NCBI GenBank assembly: GCA_963796455.1
Contig: CAWCLO010000001.1
Coordinates: 320,001 to 384,000, forward strand
DNA: 64,000 bases
Reading direction: 5' to 3'
Origin: Candidatus Sulfomarinibacteraceae bacterium
GTDB taxonomy: Bacteria > Acidobacteriota > Thermoanaerobaculia > Thermoanaerobaculales > Sulfomarinibacteraceae
The position numbers and the translations under genes are program-made. Below the pieces are notes generated by a model, which was not told the DNA's origin, did no database searches, and was given only the letters and a program-made list of their open reading frames with translations. Shown in pieces: positions 428 through 60,873 of the stretch. Position 1 is the stretch's first letter; each line of letters begins with the position of its first letter.

Positions 428-862
428 TCACTCACGTCAAGACAGAATCGCGAATAGCGTTCAGGGACAGCGACAGAATTCAGCGACAGCGAGCAGGAGT
501 CGGCGGCAGCGCTCAGTCATCAGGGTCAGCGATCAGCGGCCGGGACAGTGAACGGCACTCATTTCTTCGGGGCTCCGGCCTTTGTGGTGCGACCGTCTCG
601 GCCGCACGGTGTGCAGGCGAGACGCCTACACCACCACGGGTGATCCTCCTGTTGAACGACCCGGAGATGACCACGTGGTCACTGCACCTGATCGCTGCCC
701 CTGCCACTGAACACTGATTGCTGTTCCCTGTCGCTGACCCTGGACACTGCCGCTGCAACACGGACACGGGCCGACCGCGATCAGGAAATGCCAAGAACCA
801 ACCCCTCAACCTTGTGTTGTCAGGTGGGAAAATTCAAATGACGATTTGTTTTGGACTGCAGT
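428..862 (-). mobile_element. Gene-less derivative (copy E) of the four-helix-bundle cassette
   Basis: Both end motifs (TCACTCACGTCAAGACAGAATCGCGAATAGCG; TTGGACTGCAGTG), conserved CCTGACAACAC block, 5' hairpin arm and last codons (CCG AAG AAA TGA, minus strand) retained; CDS replaced by a REP-like doublet. Confidence 0.7.
584..634. repeat. REP-like palindromic doublet (second copy ~1240-1290)
   Basis: GTGGTGCGACCGTCTCGGCCGCAC...GTGCAGGCGAGACGCCTACACCAC: two inverted GTGG-footed hairpins. Confidence 0.65.
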
Positions 863-1081
863 GTCGGCCGGTAAAAAATCTTAGCGTTCTTTGCGTCTTC
901 GCGGTTTTCACGCTGCTCAAGCAGGTTGGCGTTTTCCGAAACGCGACCATCGTCGAAATGTGCATGAGATAGCTCGGGGCCTCGAGTCGGTTCGCATATT
1001 CGGGCGTTGTTCCTGCGTCAACCACGTAAAAAACGCAAAGTCGCCAAGACGCGAAGGGGCCGCGAAGATCCATTTCGACTC

Positions 1082-1432
1082 ATCACTCACGTACAAGACA
1101 GAATCGCGGATAGCGTTCAGGGACAGCGACAGAATTCAGCGACAGCGAGCAGGAGTCGGCGGCAGCGTACAGTCATCAGGGTCAGCGATCAGCGGCCGGG
1201 ACAGTGAACGGCACTCATTTCTTCGGGGCTCCGGCCTTTGTGGTGCGGCCGTCTCGGCCGCACGATGTGCAGGCGAGACGCCTACACCACCACGGGTGAT
1301 CCTTCTGTTGAACGACCCGGAGGTAACCACGTCGTCACTGCACCTGATCGCTGCCCTGCCACTGAACACTGATTGCTGTTCCCTGTCGCTGGACACTGTC
1401 CCTGCCGCTGCATTTCGGGATCGGGATCGGAA
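1082..1432 (-). mobile_element. Gene-less truncated derivative (copy F) of the four-helix-bundle cassette
   Basis: Duplicate of copy E lacking the distal end. Confidence 0.65.
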
Positions 1433-11016: not shown

Positions 11017-11305
11017 CGGAGCACTCGATACTGGATGCTGGATCCTGGATCACTGCTGTCCAAAAGAGATTGTCATGAAGTTACCCACCTGACAACACGC
11101 GGTGAACGGGTTGGTTTTTGGCATATCCGGTTGGCGGTTGGCACGTACCCGATCCCGATCCCGTATAGCAGCGGCAGCGACAGGGGCCAGCGTCAGCGAC
11201 AGGCAACAGCGAACAGGGACGGCGAAAGACAGCGATCAGCGATCAGCGATCAGCGATCAGCGATCAGAGTTCAGCGGCAGCAATCAGGTTCAGCGACGGC
11301 GTGCC

Positions 11306-11436
11306 CACCTCCGGGTCGTTCAACAAAAGGGGTAGCCGGTGGGCGGCCGATGTCAAGGACAGGCAGGGTGCAGGGCATCCTTGACATCGGCCGCCACACC
11401 GGCTTTGTGGGAATGGGCAAGAACGACCCGGAGGTG
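11306..11436 (+). promoter_or_regulatory. Conserved long hairpin sequestering the GGAGGTG ribosome-binding site of the four-helix-bundle gene
   Basis: CACCTCCGGGTCGTTC/GAACGACCCGGAGGTG (16 bp), GCCGGTG/CACCGGC, GGCGGCCGATGTCAAGGA/TCCTTGACATCGGCCGCC (18 bp); also in copies B and C. Confidence 0.75.
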
Positions 11437-11439
11437 ACC

Positions 11440-11793
11440 ATGTCCTCAGCCGCTACGAACACCAACCTCGTTGCCCACTCGAAAGCCCTCGAAGCAGCAG
11501 GAATCGCGATCAAGCTGGTGATGAGGGTTCCAGCTCCGTTGAAATCGATAGCCGATCAGGTGATCCGGTCGGCAAGTTCAGTCCCTGCGAATCTGGCAGA
11601 AGGCCACGGCCGATTCGGTAGAGACCGGTTGAACCATTGGAGAATCGCCTACGCCTCAGCCAAAGAGGTCGACAGCCACTTGCAGCTCCTCGCTCATGCC
11701 GGGGCGATCAGCTCGAACGGAGCGAGTGAAGCGATGAACGCCTTCGATCATGTCCGTGCGATGACCTGGCGGCTCTTGAACCCGAAGATGTGA
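11440..11793 (+). CDS. Four helix bundle protein (23S rRNA IVP/TIGR02436-like), 117 aa
   Basis: DQVIRSASSVPANLAEG...IAYASAKEVDSHL family motif; GGAGGTG RBS. Confidence 0.9.
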   Translation: MSSAATNTNLVAHSKALEAAGIAIKLVMRVPAPLKSIADQVIRSASSVPANLAEGHGRFGRDRLNHWRIAYASAKEVDSHLQLLAHAGAISSNGASEAMNAFDHVRAMTWRLLNPKM

Positions 11794-11927
11794 GTGCAGT
11801 CGCTGCCCCGGCCGCTGATCGCTGTTCCCTGCCGCTGCTCACTGTCGCTGGCGCTGGAAGCTGTCGCTGCCGCTGCAATGTGGGCACGGACTCGGGATCG
11901 GGATCGGACGCGGGCGGGAGTACCAGA

Positions 11928-15651: not shown

Positions 15652-15880
15652 CGAGACCTCCTGCCGGCATGGTACCGGGGCCGGAGGGGGAAAGGGGGAA
15701 AGGGCGCAGGGGGGAAAGGGGGAAAGGGAGAGGGCTGCTTCGCTCGATGCTGGTTGCTGGATGCTGGAACCGCGCACCCTGTCCGGTCCCGATCCCGAAA
15801 GGGAGAAAGGGAGAAAGGGAGAAAGGGAAAAGGGGGAACCACCATGCACTGGTTTCAGATGCATGCGAATGTCGCCTTCC

Positions 15881-16000
15881 GATGTCATCCTGAGCGGAGC
15901 CCACAGGGCGTAGTCGAAGGATCTATGACGCTCACGGGAGAGACCCAAGACCACAGATCCTTCGACTCCGCGCTCGAAGCGCTGCGCTCAGGATGACATC
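15881..16000. repeat. 120-bp palindromic element (copy 1)
   Basis: GATGTCATCCTGAGCG...GTCGAAGGATCT...AGATCCTTCGAC...CGCTCAGGATGACATC; 16-bp perfect terminal inverted repeat. Confidence 0.9.
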
Positions 16001-16238
16001 TTGAACGACAGTCCCGTTCCCGAATGGGACCGTACCCAAGATGGCAGAGGGGCCGAGGACCGCTGAGCATCCTCGCTATCGCTATCGCTATCGGTATCGC
16101 TATCGACCGACTGTGGTGGACACGGACGCCGTTATAGAGGCAGGGAGAACCGTACCGAAGTGATCCACGTGACAAGGAGCAGGTCTCCCTTTCTCCCTTT
16201 CTCCCCTGCGCTCGCCGCCCCTGAACCAGCTTCCAGCC

Positions 16239-32131: not shown

Positions 32132-32254
32132 CAGCCGACTGGAGAAACCCTAGATCACGCAGATATCCAATCGGTCTCGGTAGAGGTATCGCCTGCGAGG
32201 TCCCTACACCAGATTGCAGAGGGGATCGATCCTAGATGCTCGATCCTAGATGCT

Positions 32255-33096
32255 GGATCACTCTTGTCCAAGACAGAGTCTCGGATAGCGTGCAGGGACA
32301 GCGGCAGAGAACGGTCTACAGCGTCAGCGAACAGGAGTCAGGGGCAGCGTTCAGCTATCAGCGACAGCGATCAGAACTCACTTCGTCGGGTTCAAAAGGC
32401 GCCAGGTCATCGCACGGACCTGATCGAAGGCGTTCATCGCGTCGCGGGCGGCTGTCGCACTGATCGCCCCGGCGTGGGCAGAGAGGTCCAAGTGGCTGTC
32501 GACTTCTTTGGCCGATGCGTAGGCGATTCTCCAGTGGTTCAACCGGTCTCTACCAACTCGACCGTGCCCTTCTGCCAGATTCGCAGGGACCGAACTTGCT
32601 GACCGGATTACCTGATCGGCGATAGGCTTCAGCGGAGCCGGAACCCTCATCACGAGCTTGATCGCGATTCCTGCTGCTTCCAGGGCTTTCGAGTGGGCAA
32701 AGAGGTTGGTGTTCGTGGCGGCTGAGGACACGGTCACCTCCGGGTCGTTCATGCCCATTCCCGCAAGCCGGTGTGGCGGCCGATGTCAAGGATGCCCTGC
32801 ACCCTGCCTGTCCTTGACATCGGCCGCCCACCGGCTACCCCTTCCTTGGAACGACCCGGAGGTGGCCATTTCGCCGACTGGACTCCTGATCGCTGCCGCC
32901 GCCGCCGCTGTCCTCTGTCGCTGTTCCCTGACGCTGTTGCCTGTCGCTGACGCTGGACACTGCCGCTGCCGCTGCGATTCGGGATCGGTATCGGGTACCT
33001 GCGAACCACGAACCGGACATGCCAACAACCAACCCGTAAACCACGTGTTGTCAGGTAGGTAACTTCATGACGATCCGTTTTGGACAACAGTGATCC
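32255..33096 (-). mobile_element. Four-helix-bundle cassette copy B (complete, 842 bp)
   Basis: GGATCACTCTTGTCCAA ... TTGGACAACAGTGATCC (16/17 inverted match); heptamer array continues in direct orientation on both flanks. Confidence 0.8.
32378..32731 (-). CDS. Four helix bundle protein, 117 aa
   Basis: 13 substitutions versus copy A; GTG start after GGAGGTG. Confidence 0.9.
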   Translation of the reverse strand: MSSAATNTNLFAHSKALEAAGIAIKLVMRVPAPLKPIADQVIRSASSVPANLAEGHGRVGRDRLNHWRIAYASAKEVDSHLDLSAHAGAISATAARDAMNAFDQVRAMTWRLLNPTK

Positions 33097-33218
33097 TAGA
33101 TGCTGGATGCTCGATCCCGATCCCGAAAGGGGAAAGGGAGAAAGGGGGAAAGGGAGAAAGGGGGAAAGGGGGAAAGGGAGAACGTTACAGGAAGCGCGGC
33201 TTCTGATAAGGGCAGGGT

Positions 33219-33306
33219 CTCCTCTGCTCCTCTGCTCCTCTGCTCCTCTGCTCCTCTGCTCCTCTGCTCCTCTGCTCCTCTGCTCCTCTGCTCCTCTGCT
33301 CCTCTG
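33219..33306. repeat. (CTCCTCTG)11 octamer array
   Basis: Perfect tandem repeat after TGATAAGGGCAGGGT anchor. Confidence 0.95.
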
Positions 33307-33310
33307 CCTA

Positions 33311-36142: not shown

Positions 36143-36203
36143 AACTCCGAACTCCAAACTCCGAACTCCGAACTCCGAACTCCGAACTCCGAACTCCGAA
36201 CTC
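36143..36203. repeat. (AACTCCG)~8 heptamer array
   Basis: Tandem heptamers; reverse-complement array at 50625-50681. Confidence 0.9.
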
Positions 36204-47383: not shown

Positions 47384-47746
47384 TCAATCCGACGGCTCGT
47401 CGGTTTCAAAACTGAGATCGATCACATCGAGTTCATCACCGCCGGTGACCTCCAGCGGCATGCCGCAGTCGGCACACAACCGCATCCAACTTCCCTCCGA
47501 CCGGTCCTTGTCCTCATCACATTGAGCGCAATGTTGAGTCGCGGTGCACCACTGAATGACAAGTTCGGCGTCCACATCGGGGCCTTCGGCAACAACAGCC
47601 TCCCAGGCGTAGACCAGGAGGTCGGGTTCGACCGCCGAGAGCTCGCCGACGGCGAGGCGAACCCGCTGCAGTGTCCCACCGCCATGCTCTTCGACCGTTT
47701 CGCGGCTGGTCCGGTAGACCTCGAGTGCGATACCCATTTCGTGCAC
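47384..47746 (-). CDS. hypA: Nickel metallochaperone HypA
   Basis: MHE start, VGELSAVEP, CAQC...CADC, TGGDEL. Confidence 0.93.
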   Translation of the reverse strand: MHEMGIALEVYRTSRETVEEHGGGTLQRVRLAVGELSAVEPDLLVYAWEAVVAEGPDVDAELVIQWCTATQHCAQCDEDKDRSEGSWMRLCADCGMPLEVTGGDELDVIDLSFETDEPSD

Positions 47747-47916
47747 CTGGACAGTATACCGAGCACGAAAGGGAGAAAGGGAGAAAGGGAGAAAGGGGGA
47801 AAGGGGGAAGGGGGGAAAGGGAGATCGCCAGTCGATCTGTCCGAGATTGGAGAACCAGGGTCCATATGGCAGAGGGGCGGAGGGGCAGAGGGGCTAGATG
47901 CTGGATGCTGGATGCT

Positions 47917-48546
47917 GGATCACTCTTGTCCAAGATAAAGTCTCAGACAGCGATCAGGGACGGCGGCAGCGATCAGCGTCAGCGACAGGGAACAGCGATC
48001 AGCGTTCAGCGTTCAGCGTCAGCGTCAGCGTCAGCGAACAGTAGTCAGCGTCACGTTTGATTGGTATGGAGCACTGAAATCAAGACTTTGGGTTGAGTAA
48101 ACGCCATGTCATGGCACGGACTTGATCGAAGGCCTTCGTCGCTTCACCGGCTCCGTTCGGGCTGATCGCCTCGGCGTGGGCGAGGAGCTGCAAGTGGTTG
48201 TCGACCTCTTTGGCCGAGGCGTAGGCGATTCTCCAGTGGTTCGACCGGTCTCTACCGACTCGGCCGCCCACCGGCTACCCCTTCCTTTGAACGATCCGGA
48301 GGTGGCCGCTTCGTCGCCTGTACTCCTGACCGCTGCCGCTGGATACTGACCGCCGTCCCTGACCGCTGTCTCTGTTCGCTGTTGCCTGTCGCTGCCGCTG
48401 GACACTGTCGCCGCCGCTGCAATTCGGACGCGGGCACGGGCACAGGCACGGGCAACCGCGAACCGGATATGCCGAAAACCAACCCATAAACCACGTGTTG
48501 TCATGTGGGAAACTCCAGGTGACGATCTATTTTGGACAGCGGTGAT
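47917..48546 (-). mobile_element. Four-helix-bundle cassette copy D with internal deletion
   Basis: Both ends present; 5' half of CDS and 3' half of hairpin deleted at CGGCCG microhomology (~48261-48266). Confidence 0.78.
48080..48266 (-). pseudogene. Truncated four helix bundle gene (C-terminal half)
   Basis: GRVGRDRSNHWRIAYASAKEVD...MTWRLLNPKS*. Confidence 0.85.
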
Positions 48547-48659
48547 GCTGGATGTTCGATCGAGCCCGAGCCCGTTGCCGTTGCTGAGCGGGGAAAGGGA
48601 GACCCGAACCGGAAGCGATGGACGTGACCGAATCTCCCTGAATCAGAGTGTCGCCTCCC

Positions 48660-48813
48660 GATGTCATCCTGAGGGGAGCCCCGCCTTGTCACGGCGCAGC
48701 CTGAAAGGCGAAGCCGGAAGGGGCGTAGTCGAAGGATCTATGGGATGAATGGAACACCTCAGTCCGCAGATCCTTCGACTTCGCGCCAGGGGCGCTTCGC
48801 TCAGGATGACATC
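48660..48813. repeat. Palindromic element copy 2, with nested ~35-bp insertion
   Basis: GATGTCATCCTGAG...GTCGAAGGATCT...AGATCCTTCGAC...CTCAGGATGACATC. Confidence 0.88.
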
Positions 48814-48911
48814 TTGAACGACAGTTCCGTTCCCGAAAGGGGAAAGGGAGAAAGGGAGAAAGGGAGAAAGGGAGAACCATACCGGAGACTTAGTTCGTGA
48901 TAAGGGCGGGT

Positions 48912-49071
48912 CTCCTCTGCTCCTCTGCTCCTCTGCTCCTCTGCTCCTCTGCTCCTCTGCTCCTCTGCTCCTCTGCTCCTCTGCTCCTCTGCTCCTCTGC
49001 TCCTCTGCTCCTCTGCTCCTCTGCTCCTCTGCTCCTCTGCTCCTCTGCTCCTCTGCTCCTCTGCTCCTCTG
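48912..49071. repeat. (CTCCTCTG)20 octamer array
   Basis: Perfect tandem repeat after TGATAAGGGCGGGT anchor. Confidence 0.95.
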
Positions 49072-49108
49072 CGCGAGACTCGGGTGGGGTGTACAATGCC
49101 CGCTGTTT

Positions 49109-50626
49109 ATGACACTCCCACGCATCGTCATCACCGGCGCATCGGGCTTCATCGGCCGCAATCTTCTGCGAGACTTCAAGAACGATTTCAAAATCGTCGG
49201 TTTGGCCCGTCGTTCACAACTCCATTGCGGAGCGCCGATTCACAACAACATCACCTGGTATCAGGTCGACATCGGCAACCGCGAACAACTTGCCACCGCA
49301 TTCAAGTACATCCGCGAGTCGGGCGGAGCCGACTATGTGATCCACCTCGCCGCCCACTACGATTTCACCGGTGAGAACCATCCCGAGTATTGGCGGACCA
49401 ATGTGGAAGGCATGCGCAACGTGCTGGAGGAGTGTCGCGGCCTCGATCTGAAGCGTTTCATCTTCAGTTCTTCGATCGCAGCCTGTGAATTTCCCAGAAC
49501 CGGCGAAACGCTCAACGAAGAGAGTCCGCCCGATGGCGAACATGTTTATGCGGTGACCAAACGCATCGGCGAGGAGATGCTGGTCGAGTACGACGACATC
49601 CCGTCCTGCATCATCCGTCTCGCCGCGTTGTTCTCCGACTGGTGTGAATACGCTCCACTGTATATCTTTCTCGAGACCTGGCTTTCGGATGTGTGGAACA
49701 AGAACATCCTCGGTGGTCGAGGCACCACCGCCATCCCTTATATGCACGTCCGCGAGATGGGGCCCTTTCTCCGCCGTCTGATGGAGCGGGGAGATTCGAT
49801 CGGGCAACGGGAAGTCCTTCTCGCCAGCCCCAACGAAACACTTTCCCACAAAGAGCTCTATGACCTGGCCAACATCGATTATTTCGGCCAACGCCGGCGC
49901 CCGATCTTCATGCCCAAGGCCCTCGCCCAGATTGGTGTCTGGGGCCGCGATCTGATCGGTCGCCTGCTGGGTAACCGGCCCTTCGAACGCCCTTGGATGA
50001 TTCAGTACCTGGACACCGATCTCGCTGTCGACACCAGCCGTACAAGCGAGCGTCTCGGGTGGAGACCGAGAAAACGCCTGCTTCTCCAGCGTCGGATGCC
50101 CTTCATGGTCGAATACAGAAAAACGAATCCCAACGAATGGCACCGTCTCAACCGCGCTGCCCTCAAAGAGGTTCATCTCCGCGACAATTTGCGGATCAAC
50201 GGATTGCTCGAAGTGCACCTGGATTCGATCTGCACCGAATTTCTCGACCAGATGCAGTCTCCTGGTTCGGCGTCGCGTTTTCCGTCCTATCAGAATGTTG
50301 CCAGGGACCGCCTCGAGTGGCGTTTCATCATCCTGCTACGCCATCTTCAGAGCTCGATCCGAACCCACGACCGCGGTCTCTTTACGACCTACTGCAGAGA
50401 CCTGGCGGAAAAACGGCTGATGCAGGGCTTCGGGGTGCGCGAAGTGGTCGGTGCACTGCTGACGATGAATTCCATTTGCGTCGACACGCTGCGATCGGAC
50501 CCCGAGGGCGAAGACCTCGGCACGGCGATCCACGACTACCTCTCGATGACCGTCCAGTTCGGTTGTGATCAGATCCTGGAGATCTATGAAGAGGTTGGTG
50601 GCGAAGAGATCGACGAAGACTTTTGA
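49109..50626 (+). CDS. NAD-dependent epimerase/dehydratase (extended SDR) with C-terminal helical (globin/RsbRD_N-like) domain
   Basis: ITGASGFIG, HLAA, FSSS, YAVTK; extra ~150-aa helical tail. Confidence 0.8.
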   Translation: MTLPRIVITGASGFIGRNLLRDFKNDFKIVGLARRSQLHCGAPIHNNITWYQVDIGNREQLATAFKYIRESGGADYVIHLAAHYDFTGENHPEYWRTNVEGMRNVLEECRGLDLKRFIFSSSIAACEFPRTGETLNEESPPDGEHVYAVTKRIGEEMLVEYDDIPSCIIRLAALFSDWCEYAPLYIFLETWLSDVWNKNILGGRGTTAIPYMHVREMGPFLRRLMERGDSIGQREVLLASPNETLSHKELYDLANIDYFGQRRRPIFMPKALAQIGVWGRDLIGRLLGNRPFERPWMIQYLDTDLAVDTSRTSERLGWRPRKRLLLQRRMPFMVEYRKTNPNEWHRLNRAALKEVHLRDNLRINGLLEVHLDSICTEFLDQMQSPGSASRFPSYQNVARDRLEWRFIILLRHLQSSIRTHDRGLFTTYCRDLAEKRLMQGFGVREVVGALLTMNSICVDTLRSDPEGEDLGTAIHDYLSMTVQFGCDQILEIYEEVGGEEIDEDF

Positions 50627-50681
50627 GTTCGGAATTCGGAGTTCGGAGTTCGTAGTTCGGAATTCGGAGTTCGGAGTTCGG
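50625..50681. repeat. (GAGTTCG)~8 heptamer array
   Basis: Begins inside the stop codon of the upstream gene. Confidence 0.9.
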
Positions 50682-51788: not shown

Positions 51789-52581
51789 GGATCACCCTTG
51801 TCCAAGACAGAGTCTCAGACAGCAACCGGGGACAGGGACGGGGAACGGCGGACAGCGTCAGCGAACGGTTGTCAGGGTCAGCGATCAGCTATCAACAGCA
51901 GCGACAGACAGCAGCGCTCACCTTTTCGGGTTCAAGAGCCGCCAGGTCATCGCACGGACCTGATCGAACGCCTTCATCGCTTCACTGGCTCCGTTCGGGC
52001 TGATCGCCCCGGTGTGGGCGAGGAGTTCCAAGTGGCTGTCGACCTCTTTGGCCGAGGCGTAGGCGATTCTCCAGTGGTTCAACCGGTCTCTACCGAAACG
52101 GCCGTGGCCTTCTGCAAGGTTCGCAGGGACTGAACTCGCCGATCGGACGACCTGATCGGCTATGGATTTCAGCGGAGCCGGAACCCTCATCACGAGTTTG
52201 ATCGCGATGCCTGCTGCTTCGAGTGCTTTCGAGTGGGCAACGAGGTTGGTGTTCGTGGCGGCGTTGGACATGGTCACCTCCGGGTCGTTCATGCCCATAC
52301 CCACAAGCCGGTGTGGTGGCCGATGTCAAGGATGCCCTGCACCCTGCCTGTCCTTGACATCGGCCGCCCACCGGCTACCCCTTCTGTTGAACGACCCGGT
52401 GGTGGCCACTTCGTCGCATGTACTCCTGATCGCTGCCGCTGAACACTGATCGCTGATTGCTGTTCTCTGTCGCTGCTTCCTGTCGCTGCCGCTGGACACT
52501 GTCGCTGTCGCTGATTCCTGTTGACTGCCCCTGCCCCTGCCTCTGAACGCTATCCGAGACCCTTTCTCGGACAAGAATGAT
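51789..52581 (-). mobile_element. Four-helix-bundle cassette copy C, inserted between hybC terminator and hybD
   Basis: 33-bp imperfect terminal inverted repeats (26/33), hairpin and intact CDS. Confidence 0.8.
51918..52271 (-). CDS. Four helix bundle protein, 117 aa
   Basis: 8 substitutions versus copy A. Confidence 0.9.
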   Translation of the reverse strand: MSNAATNTNLVAHSKALEAAGIAIKLVMRVPAPLKSIADQVVRSASSVPANLAEGHGRFGRDRLNHWRIAYASAKEVDSHLELLAHTGAISPNGASEAMKAFDQVRAMTWRLLNPKR

Positions 52582-60495: not shown

Positions 60496-60650
60496 GGCGC
60501 AGAGAGGCAGAGGATCGCTCGGCATCTTCGCTATCGCTATCGATGGGCGAATTCCGATTCGAATCTTCTTGCGCCAGCCGCGATTCGTACGCTTTCCCGA
60601 AAGTCCGAACCACCCGCTCTGACTTCGAACTCAAGCGAATGCCGCCTCCC

Positions 60651-60771
60651 GATGTCATCCTGAGCGGAGCGCCTTTGGCGCGTAGTCGAAGGATCTGCGT
60701 CTCGGAATCTTTGTGTTCCGTCTCATAGATCCTTCGACTCGGCCGTCGAACGGCCTCGCTCAGGATGACAT
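60651..60771. repeat. Palindromic element copy 3
   Basis: GATGTCATCCTGAGCG...GTCGAAGGATCT...AGATCCTTCGAC...CGCTCAGGATGACAT. Confidence 0.9.
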
Positions 60772-60873
60772 ATTGAAAAGACCCACCGAATCAACTTCGG
60801 ATCAGGAGACGGGGAGATCATCGCGGATCAAGAAACTTGATAAGAGCGGAGTCTCCTCTGCTCCTCTGCCGAC

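Follow-up and report, generated by a model that had tools for sequence, protein, structure and literature searches.

What moved a short intergenic segment that encodes one small protein and no transposase about a bacterial genome, and why has its gene been kept? The question is raised by positions 32,255 to 33,096 of the window, by which we mean the whole 64-kb stretch of DNA analysed here, where the segment has five relatives.

Copies in the window and the origin of their ends

All six related segments listed by the initial annotation, here called A to F, are present in the window. The inverted match of 16/17 between the terminal 17-mers of copy B was confirmed, as was the retention in A, B and C of a hairpin and a 117-aa reading frame, with 8 differences between A and C and 14 between A and B (13 if the GTG start of B is left out of the count). 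For copy C the inverted likeness of the ends stood, with 19 of the terminal 24 nt matching by hand, but the reported figure of 26/33 was not reproduced. The proposed start of the element at GGAT had to be moved: genome-wide pairing of ends places the real start at CACT, 4 bp inside the motif first described. We rejected GGAT as part of the end because it is target DNA belonging to GATGCTG arrays, and copy B therefore spans 32259-33092. Nor are the six equivalent insertions. Their ends differ, and F duplicates E in tandem (242-757 versus 896-1412, 489/514 identical, 95%), the duplicated tract taking in flanking DNA together with the broken cassette; in both E and F another palindrome, read by eye, replaces the ORF.

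The features of copy B are:
32259..33092, no strand: complete cassette, 834 bp, from IS4 left end to IS4 right end
32259..32276, plus strand: left terminal inverted repeat, IS4-type, CACTCTTGTCCAAGA(CAG), the same end as in autonomous IS4 elements
33075..33092, minus strand: right terminal inverted repeat, IS4-type, consensus CACTGCTGTCCAAAACAG
32250..32258, plus strand: left 9-bp target duplication, ATGCTGGAT, in a heptamer array of the GATGCTG type; 7/9 positions agree with the right one
33093..33101, plus strand: right 9-bp target duplication, ATCCTAGAT, within the same array as the left one
32286..32375, plus strand: downstream CAGCG(A/G/T) hexa/heptamer arm of the cargo
32378..32752, minus strand: four-helix-bundle gene (PF05635/TIGR02436)
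32732..32867, no strand: nested palindrome
32880..32995, minus strand: upstream CAGCG arm and GATCCC hexamers
32996..33074, minus strand: non-coding block adjoining the right end

The other copies are:
11051..11896, plus strand: copy A, with the right IS end (at 11051), a hairpin and an intact ORF (11440-11793); the left end is missing
51793..52579, minus strand: copy C, whose two ends are both of the left type, with an intact ORF (51918-52292); lies between inverted GATGCTG arrays
47921..48544, minus strand: copy D, with both ends and a 9-bp duplication that is perfect; carries an internal deletion common to 9 loci
429..863, minus strand: copy E, left end decayed, right end kept, other palindrome in place of the ORF
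1084..1432, minus strand: copy F, tandem duplicate of E plus flank, no right end

The window also holds other tandem arrays (GAAAGGGA, CTCTGCTC and CCGAACT, at 33110-33307, 47745-47843, 48820-49072, 36143-36203 and 50618-50681) and a REP-like palindrome family, GATGTCATCCTGAGCG...GAAGGATC, at 15846-16028, 48625-48841 and 60616-60800. Six matches to the Y1 transposase (Y1_Tnp) were found in the genome.

BLASTN with copy B returned 238 loci in the 5.02-Mb, 10-contig assembly. The end motif is conserved genome-wide, as had been anticipated, with 112 exact and 209 one-mismatch occurrences versus 0 and 2 in a shuffled genome. Coverage of the ORF consensus exceeds 95% at 65 loci, is partial at 43 and is nil at 130; both ends are present at 33, 13 and 34 loci of these three classes, respectively. 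We extracted 59 near-full frames, 58 of which have the same length and no stop, and six further full-length copies are frameshifted. When 234 loci were projected, 59 held hairpin and gene, 144 held neither, 21 kept the gene end without the leader and 5 kept the leader with a cut gene; the full gene is missing in 173. The bias among the truncations (21 leader-less versus 5 leader-keeping) is to be read with the 9 loci with one junction that the total includes, and palindromes are deletion-prone in any case. We rejected this common deletion as proof that dead copies had jumped: its junction has a 7-bp microhomology, and the likeness of the 9 loci is no greater than that of full copies (0.175 versus 0.177 far from the junction, 0.079 versus 0.093 near it). 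In the sequencing runs at most 0.17 of words were in common, and the matches of four runs to copy C were pieces of relatives' contigs only.

The ends carry the signature of a known transposase family. At 75 pairs of ends less than 1.2 kb apart (five 35-bp false pairs included), a 9-bp direct repeat is perfect in 19 and 8/9 or better in 35, versus only 0-2 perfect repeats at each length of 3-8 and 10-15 bp; the 45 perfect repeats at 2 bp reflect the AT found at both extremities of most targets. A 2-bp duplication misread as 9 bp within period-7 arrays is ruled out by sites free of arrays, where 21 end pairs give a mean match of 71% at 9 bp versus 25-29% at 7, 8, 10 and 11 bp. Just one of these 21 pairs has a perfect duplication and 8 reach 8/9, and the insertions are therefore old; among two-ended copies in general, a clean duplication is missing in 32/70.

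The exact end motif occurs in 11/25 genomes of the genus, and in one of them (G017) it closes an intact 1411-bp IS4 element with ends CAGTCTTGTCCAAAA / TTTTGGACAGCAGTG. The transposase of this element scores 251 bits with NF033592 (cut-off 115), has DUF4372 and DDE_Tnp_1 domains, and carries residues D130, D196 and E299 and a Y292-R295-E299-K306 motif. Among its best 80 metagenome relatives, most begin CACTCTTGTCC and end TTGGACAGCAGTG, the two ends of the cassette, and the 9-bp duplication is perfect in 7/55 two-ended loci (5 distinct sites), with none perfect at other lengths. By sequence, the cassette's ends equal those of an IS4-family element (IS4Sa-like) that is widespread. Outside the terminal 18 nt, only one of four close IS4 elements resembles the cassette, and weakly (p=0.006, uncorrected); the block at 32996..33074, with its weak match to that element, is possibly decayed IS4 subterminal DNA. 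Table 1 of PMC2266710 gives the IS4Sa subgroup ends of CA------T, 8-10-bp duplications, a size of 1150-1750 bp and YREK; the partner element appears to fit by end pattern, size, repeat length and YREK, an assignment drawn from these tabulated features alone. The cassette itself shares the end pattern and the 9-bp duplication, but it lacks a transposase, and the nearest subclade differs from IS4Sa in inserting into period-7 arrays.

No transposase with matching ends and no reverse transcriptase was found in the cassette's own genome; the IS4 transposase with these ends is that of G017, the one carrier among the 25 genus genomes, in which the exact end motif occurs once. The cognate enzyme is absent from the window's assembly (NF033592 search; assembly 90.5% complete), and profile searches of this genome gave no match to Tnp_DNA_bind, NF033592 or ISL3. 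The genome's only DDE_Tnp_1 element was rejected as the mover, with its other ends and 4-bp duplication:
G000:C7:289607-293101: L001, sole DDE_Tnp_1 element of the genome, ends GAGCCTCTTGCAAAA, 4-bp duplication
Its neighbour looks by eye like an end of an IS110 transposase.

The cassette contains the PF05635/TIGR02436 gene and no transposase, as first described, but it is not a new system at its ends, which are IS4 ends. Comparison with relatives shows where it is missing. At site B the cassette is absent and the same gene pair adjacent in three of five relatives (G005, G008 and G021), G006 has other neighbours there, and in G014 the same gene end carries a copy with ISL3 ends; the cassette is missing from site C in 5/5 relatives, and site A is not comparable, its neighbours differing in 5/5. 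These empty sites belong to other species, whose flanking proteins are 46-89% identical, and so are not clean pre-insertion alleles. Conserved ends, 9-bp duplications and empty orthologous sites nevertheless bear out the proposal that this is one discrete mobile unit, represented by intact as well as deleted members.

What the ends carry varies between species. IS4-ended copies fetched from G021, G008 and G020 lack gene and hairpin in 10/10 cases, six of them read by eye and holding other palindromes, and those fetched from G006 have both in 10/10, seven with perfect duplications. (G021 contains 52 exact IS4 end motifs.) Because the same ends carry unrelated palindromes in other species, the shell can move without the small protein, and the suggestion that this protein acts in the spread is unsupported as regards the shell, there being also the 34 two-ended loci here that lack the ORF. 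The protein may yet act in the spread of the inner hairpin-gene unit, which is under selection and, in other genera, has multiple copies lacking IS ends. With IS4 ends, 9-bp duplications, empty sites and no resident transposase, the family would be a non-autonomous mobile insertion cassette, and the sequence evidence for placement of its copies by an IS4 transposase acting in trans gives that reading good support.

The cargo, its conservation and its age

The protein of copy B is 124 aa long if read from the first ATG and 117 aa if read from the second start, which in this copy is a GTG at 32731. Its scores exceed the curated cut-offs of the TIGR02436 and PF05635 profiles (54.1 versus 33.8 and 57.4 versus 24 bits), and its predicted fold has four helices (pLDDT 93). 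The model matches the structure of Xcc0516/2GSC with a TM of 0.84, and also BT_0352/2RLD; the match to Avd (4DWL, 8UBB) is weak, at TM 0.75-0.77 and 8-10% identity. The initial assignment to a four-helix bundle with a fold in common with DGR Avd thus holds, and by analogy with 2GSC the protein is likely a homopentamer. To our knowledge no function has been assigned to this very widespread (23S-IVS, Avd-like) family. A predicted complex of the protein with the IS4 transposase scored 0.00, which gives no answer either way. At 12/70 sites, a count that has no control set beside it, an open frame runs across the site.

Ahead of the gene stands the hairpin, a 136-bp nested palindrome with a 20-bp outer stem, an inner stem of ~25 bp and a 22-nt loop. 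The outer stem covers a GGAGG site just before the second start, each arm of the inner stem has a TTGACA, and TTGAC lies 34-38 nt before ATGAAC in 35/36 sequences. When 30 of the 36 extracted sequences were aligned (6 were dropped as near-duplicates or broken), 31/41 hairpin pairs showed two-sided changes across two families, with few G-U changes. Rfam returned 0 matches at gathering score in the window and none to the hairpin, and a promoter consensus scan of the hairpin found none. The loop has a single orientation in 58/58 copies of this genome; both orientations were seen by eye between copies or species elsewhere (L245 versus L319, and L254).

Pairwise identity among the 58 frames is 0.84-0.99, and their dN/dS, which had been proposed as a check, is 0.16-0.17. 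Nonsynonymous to synonymous counts are 67:40 for private and 66:139 for common variants (p=3e-7; neutral about 3:1). In 26 two-ended full copies, mismatches to the consensus number 7/1380 (0.5%) in the hairpin, where 23 of the 26 copies matched, versus 64/910 (7%) in the IS ends, which had been chosen for closeness to the consensus, making the hairpin ~14 times more conserved. Diversity is 0.01-0.03 in the stems, 0.13-0.19 in the spacers between them and 0.16-0.38 at four-fold sites; conservation is site-specific and shows no gradient from the hairpin. Variable spacers and four-fold sites beside conserved stems therefore indicate selection on particular bases and not blanket homogenisation. 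Linkage falls from an r2 of 0.18 for sites within 10 nt of each other to 0.03 for sites more than 50 nt apart, and four gametes occur in 85% of distant site pairs; copies therefore exchange short tracts, and the ORFs are fine mosaics. Dead copies draw on the same variant pool as intact ones. Because the hairpin has diverged by 0.5% against 7% for the ends, and hairpin and gene are kept or lost jointly, the cargo has been kept long after upkeep of the shell stopped. These patterns of variation show that, since the spread, purifying selection has acted to preserve both hairpin and protein.

The gene has a history beyond this genome. At E 1e-20 it was found in 22/28 sampled genomes of the family, 3/20 of the sister family and 0/152 other genomes of the class, and the nested palindrome upstream of it is kept throughout these relatives. 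In many of them the same cargo lies between GGCTCATCCGGAA ends, a motif present in 14/25 genus genomes and not in the window's genome; intact ISL3 elements of G017 and G022 have these same ends. From 20 ISL3-ended regions picked from hit lists, 16 have both ends, 12 of those 16 have an 8-bp duplication matching at 7/8 or better, and 6 have the full gene. For ISL3 the consensus of the targets reads GAACGTTC, and it often stands in 7/8-bp arrays; among 58 ISL3 flanks, 16 are periodic and 28 have two or more AACGTT-like units. ISL3-shelled loci come from records of Thermoanaerobaculia, Sulfomarinibacteraceae and Holophagae. Intact ISL3 transposases were seen in or beside 7/8-bp arrays at L225, L226 and L228, the last of them 260 bp from a four-helix-bundle cargo having one ISL3 end.

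Three genomes (G211, G040 and G191) have the cargo in multiple copies within neither shell (20 loci read), and in G211 and G040 all 22 scored matches lack IS4 and ISL3 ends. When 54 genes were placed on a tree, the 10 rows with an IS4 shell grouped in a single clade (100/98). Rows without a shell branch deepest, and those with ISL3 ends are spread over several groups of an open fork; the order of the shells on this tree is inferred, because the root is a midpoint and there was no clade test. By its distribution, the cargo (hairpin and gene) appears to be older than the IS4 shell. Several gene matches among the copies of G151, for example L234, carry one TGA inside the aligned stretch. At L239 (G195:C260) a reverse-transcriptase element starting GTGCG, presumably group II intron-like to judge from that start motif, is inserted in the cargo's hairpin.

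Explanations for the spread and upkeep of the cargo

We consider it likely that the family is a non-autonomous, IS4-ended mobile insertion cassette formed around an older hairpin-gene unit, which was spread in trans and whose cargo has been maintained. The hairpin-gene cargo would have been captured once between IS4 ends, and a burst of transposition by an IS4 transposase in trans would have carried it into GATGCTG heptamer arrays, leaving 9-bp duplications; the transposase would then have been lost, and the ends and duplications would have decayed. The hairpin may carry the promoter and ribosome site of the gene and be bound by the protein, probably as a pentamer. Point-damaged copies that are still expressed would be removed and joint loss of hairpin and gene would be tolerated, which would give the all-or-nothing pattern. 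For the upkeep, then, we infer and favour an expressed unit whose protein would bind its own hairpin, with damaged expressed copies purged.

IS transposition leaves the shell-less multicopy cargo of other genera unexplained. Such copies would be expected if the hairpin-gene core were itself a copying unit: the protein would act in cis on the hairpin of its own unit, and homing or conversion would place new copies of the core in old shells and arrays, the IS4 and ISL3 ends being later add-ons that set the present boundaries. We regard this as unlikely. The two-sided changes in the hairpin, its excess of conservation over the IS ends, the purified common variants beside private ones nearer neutral, and the short-tract mosaics would all suit it. 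Against it, no reverse transcriptase was found in the window's genome or in G151, G211, G091 and G021, the loop keeps one orientation in every copy here, and conservation does not grade away from the hairpin; the variant pool that dead copies have in common with intact ones means, moreover, that exchange needs no intact gene in cis. We know of no catalytic function for the four-helix-bundle fold. Tentatively, we can also envisage a self-maintaining selfish unit of a new kind. Its Avd-like protein would recognise its own hairpin and bring about copying or repair of the unit, which would encode neither transposase nor reverse transcriptase; its relatives would supply the tandem arrays, and two unrelated DDE transposons that home to these arrays, IS4 and ISL3, would each have captured and amplified it.

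A retroelement or DGR reading was rejected: the genome has no RVT_1 reverse transcriptase, and there is no adenine bias (third-position change by base: A 0.17, C 0.13, G 0.16, T 0.06). PMC10053308 describes the DGR accessory protein Avd as homologous to the four-helix-bundle family. The cassette protein resembles Avd in fold; the cassette differs from DGRs on the two points just given.

Target arrays and comparison with known systems

Under the preferred reading of an IS4-ended cassette moved in trans, the arrays were its targets. Period-7 arrays make up 98/209 end flanks versus 0.46% of random sites, and the target consensus of the cassette is the palindrome ATSCWGSAT, which GATGCTG-type arrays supply. 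Four IS4 elements at least 79% identical to the G017 protein have period-7 arrays, of other sequences, at 8/8 flanks, as compared with 0/83 for more distant IS4 members. None of the four has clean duplications, perhaps because short-read contigs join the flanks of different copies. Flanking period-7 arrays of differing sequence were noted in the IS4 subclade at L012, L035, L050 and L051, and at L051 a second IS end comes directly after a five-unit array.

The genome has ~900 arrays of period 6-9. Among its GAT-type arrays, 69/123 do not touch a recognisable end, and some adjoin decayed ends; in G006, G008 and G021, where site C is empty, inverted array pairs lie at that site. With so many arrays away from ends and array pairs at empty C sites, the arrays appear to predate the cassette. 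Four other four-helix-bundle genes in the genome are each flanked by their own inverted array arms, and IS ends were not seen at them:
G000 C4:1278094, C1:983149, C9:2726 and C10:733004: unrelated four-helix-bundle genes with own arms

It is doubtful, for these reasons, that the arrays are transposon footprints and not pre-existing targets, having grown by target duplication, excision and rejoining at a 2-bp overlap (9-2=7). Each kind of array is a tandem run of the palindromic target of its element (ATSCWGSAT for IS4, GAACGTTC for ISL3), as footprints should be, but the arrays that touch no end, the inverted pairs at the empty C site of three relatives, the arms of the four other genes and the different sequences in which the close IS4 elements sit all speak against it. 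That the family is a plain MITE with a neutral passenger, its apparent selection inherited from one or a few functional sources and spread by gene conversion, is very improbable: the same shells do carry unrelated palindromes, the full gene is missing from most of the projected loci, neutrality is approached by private variants and recombination among copies is plain, but conversion alone would homogenise synonymous sites and spacers, which remain many times more diverse than the stems, and 58/59 near-full frames have equal length and no stop.

In PMC3129680, MICs and MITEs are IS ends without a transposase that are moved by a cognate transposase. Our cassette is like them in having IS ends, a target duplication, a passenger gene, deleted derivatives and no transposase of its own. 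As for derivation from IS4, its ends are those of the autonomous IS, its 9-bp duplication is that of the parent, and empty sites exist; the cognate transposase was not found in the same genome (90.5% complete). It is unlike MICs and MITEs in that ~60 intact copies of one passenger occur per genome, the passenger is under purifying selection after the ends decayed, and the same passenger lies inside two unrelated IS shells.

According to PMC4990558, 23S rRNA intervening sequences carry an S23p ORF, and Xcc0516 (2GSC) and BT_0352 (2RLD) are structures of that family. The cassette has the same protein family and fold, and its gene is likewise set among inverted repeats, but it is intergenic and has IS ends, target duplications and an extra nested hairpin before the start. 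That it is itself an rRNA intervening sequence was rejected, 0/70 PF05635 hits lying inside the single rRNA operon of the genome. A literature search, which did not extend to subscription journals, supplements or ISfinder, found no description of such a cassette.

The family would illustrate clearly how two IS families can capture the same cargo, how IS lineages can be directed to short tandem arrays, and how selection on a passenger can outlast the vehicle that carried it. With 58 natural variants in one genome, a conserved non-coding partner and a known mover, it provides a direct test system for binding, expression and cis effects on spread.

IS1397, ISPa11 and ISRm22 are IS elements that target REP/BIME repeats. 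The cassette is like them in inserting into abundant intergenic repeats; unlike theirs, its targets are 7/8-bp tandem arrays, used by both IS4 and ISL3 lineages. REP-like palindromes occupy the place of the gene inside IS4 and ISL3 shells at L279-L288, L301 and L304.
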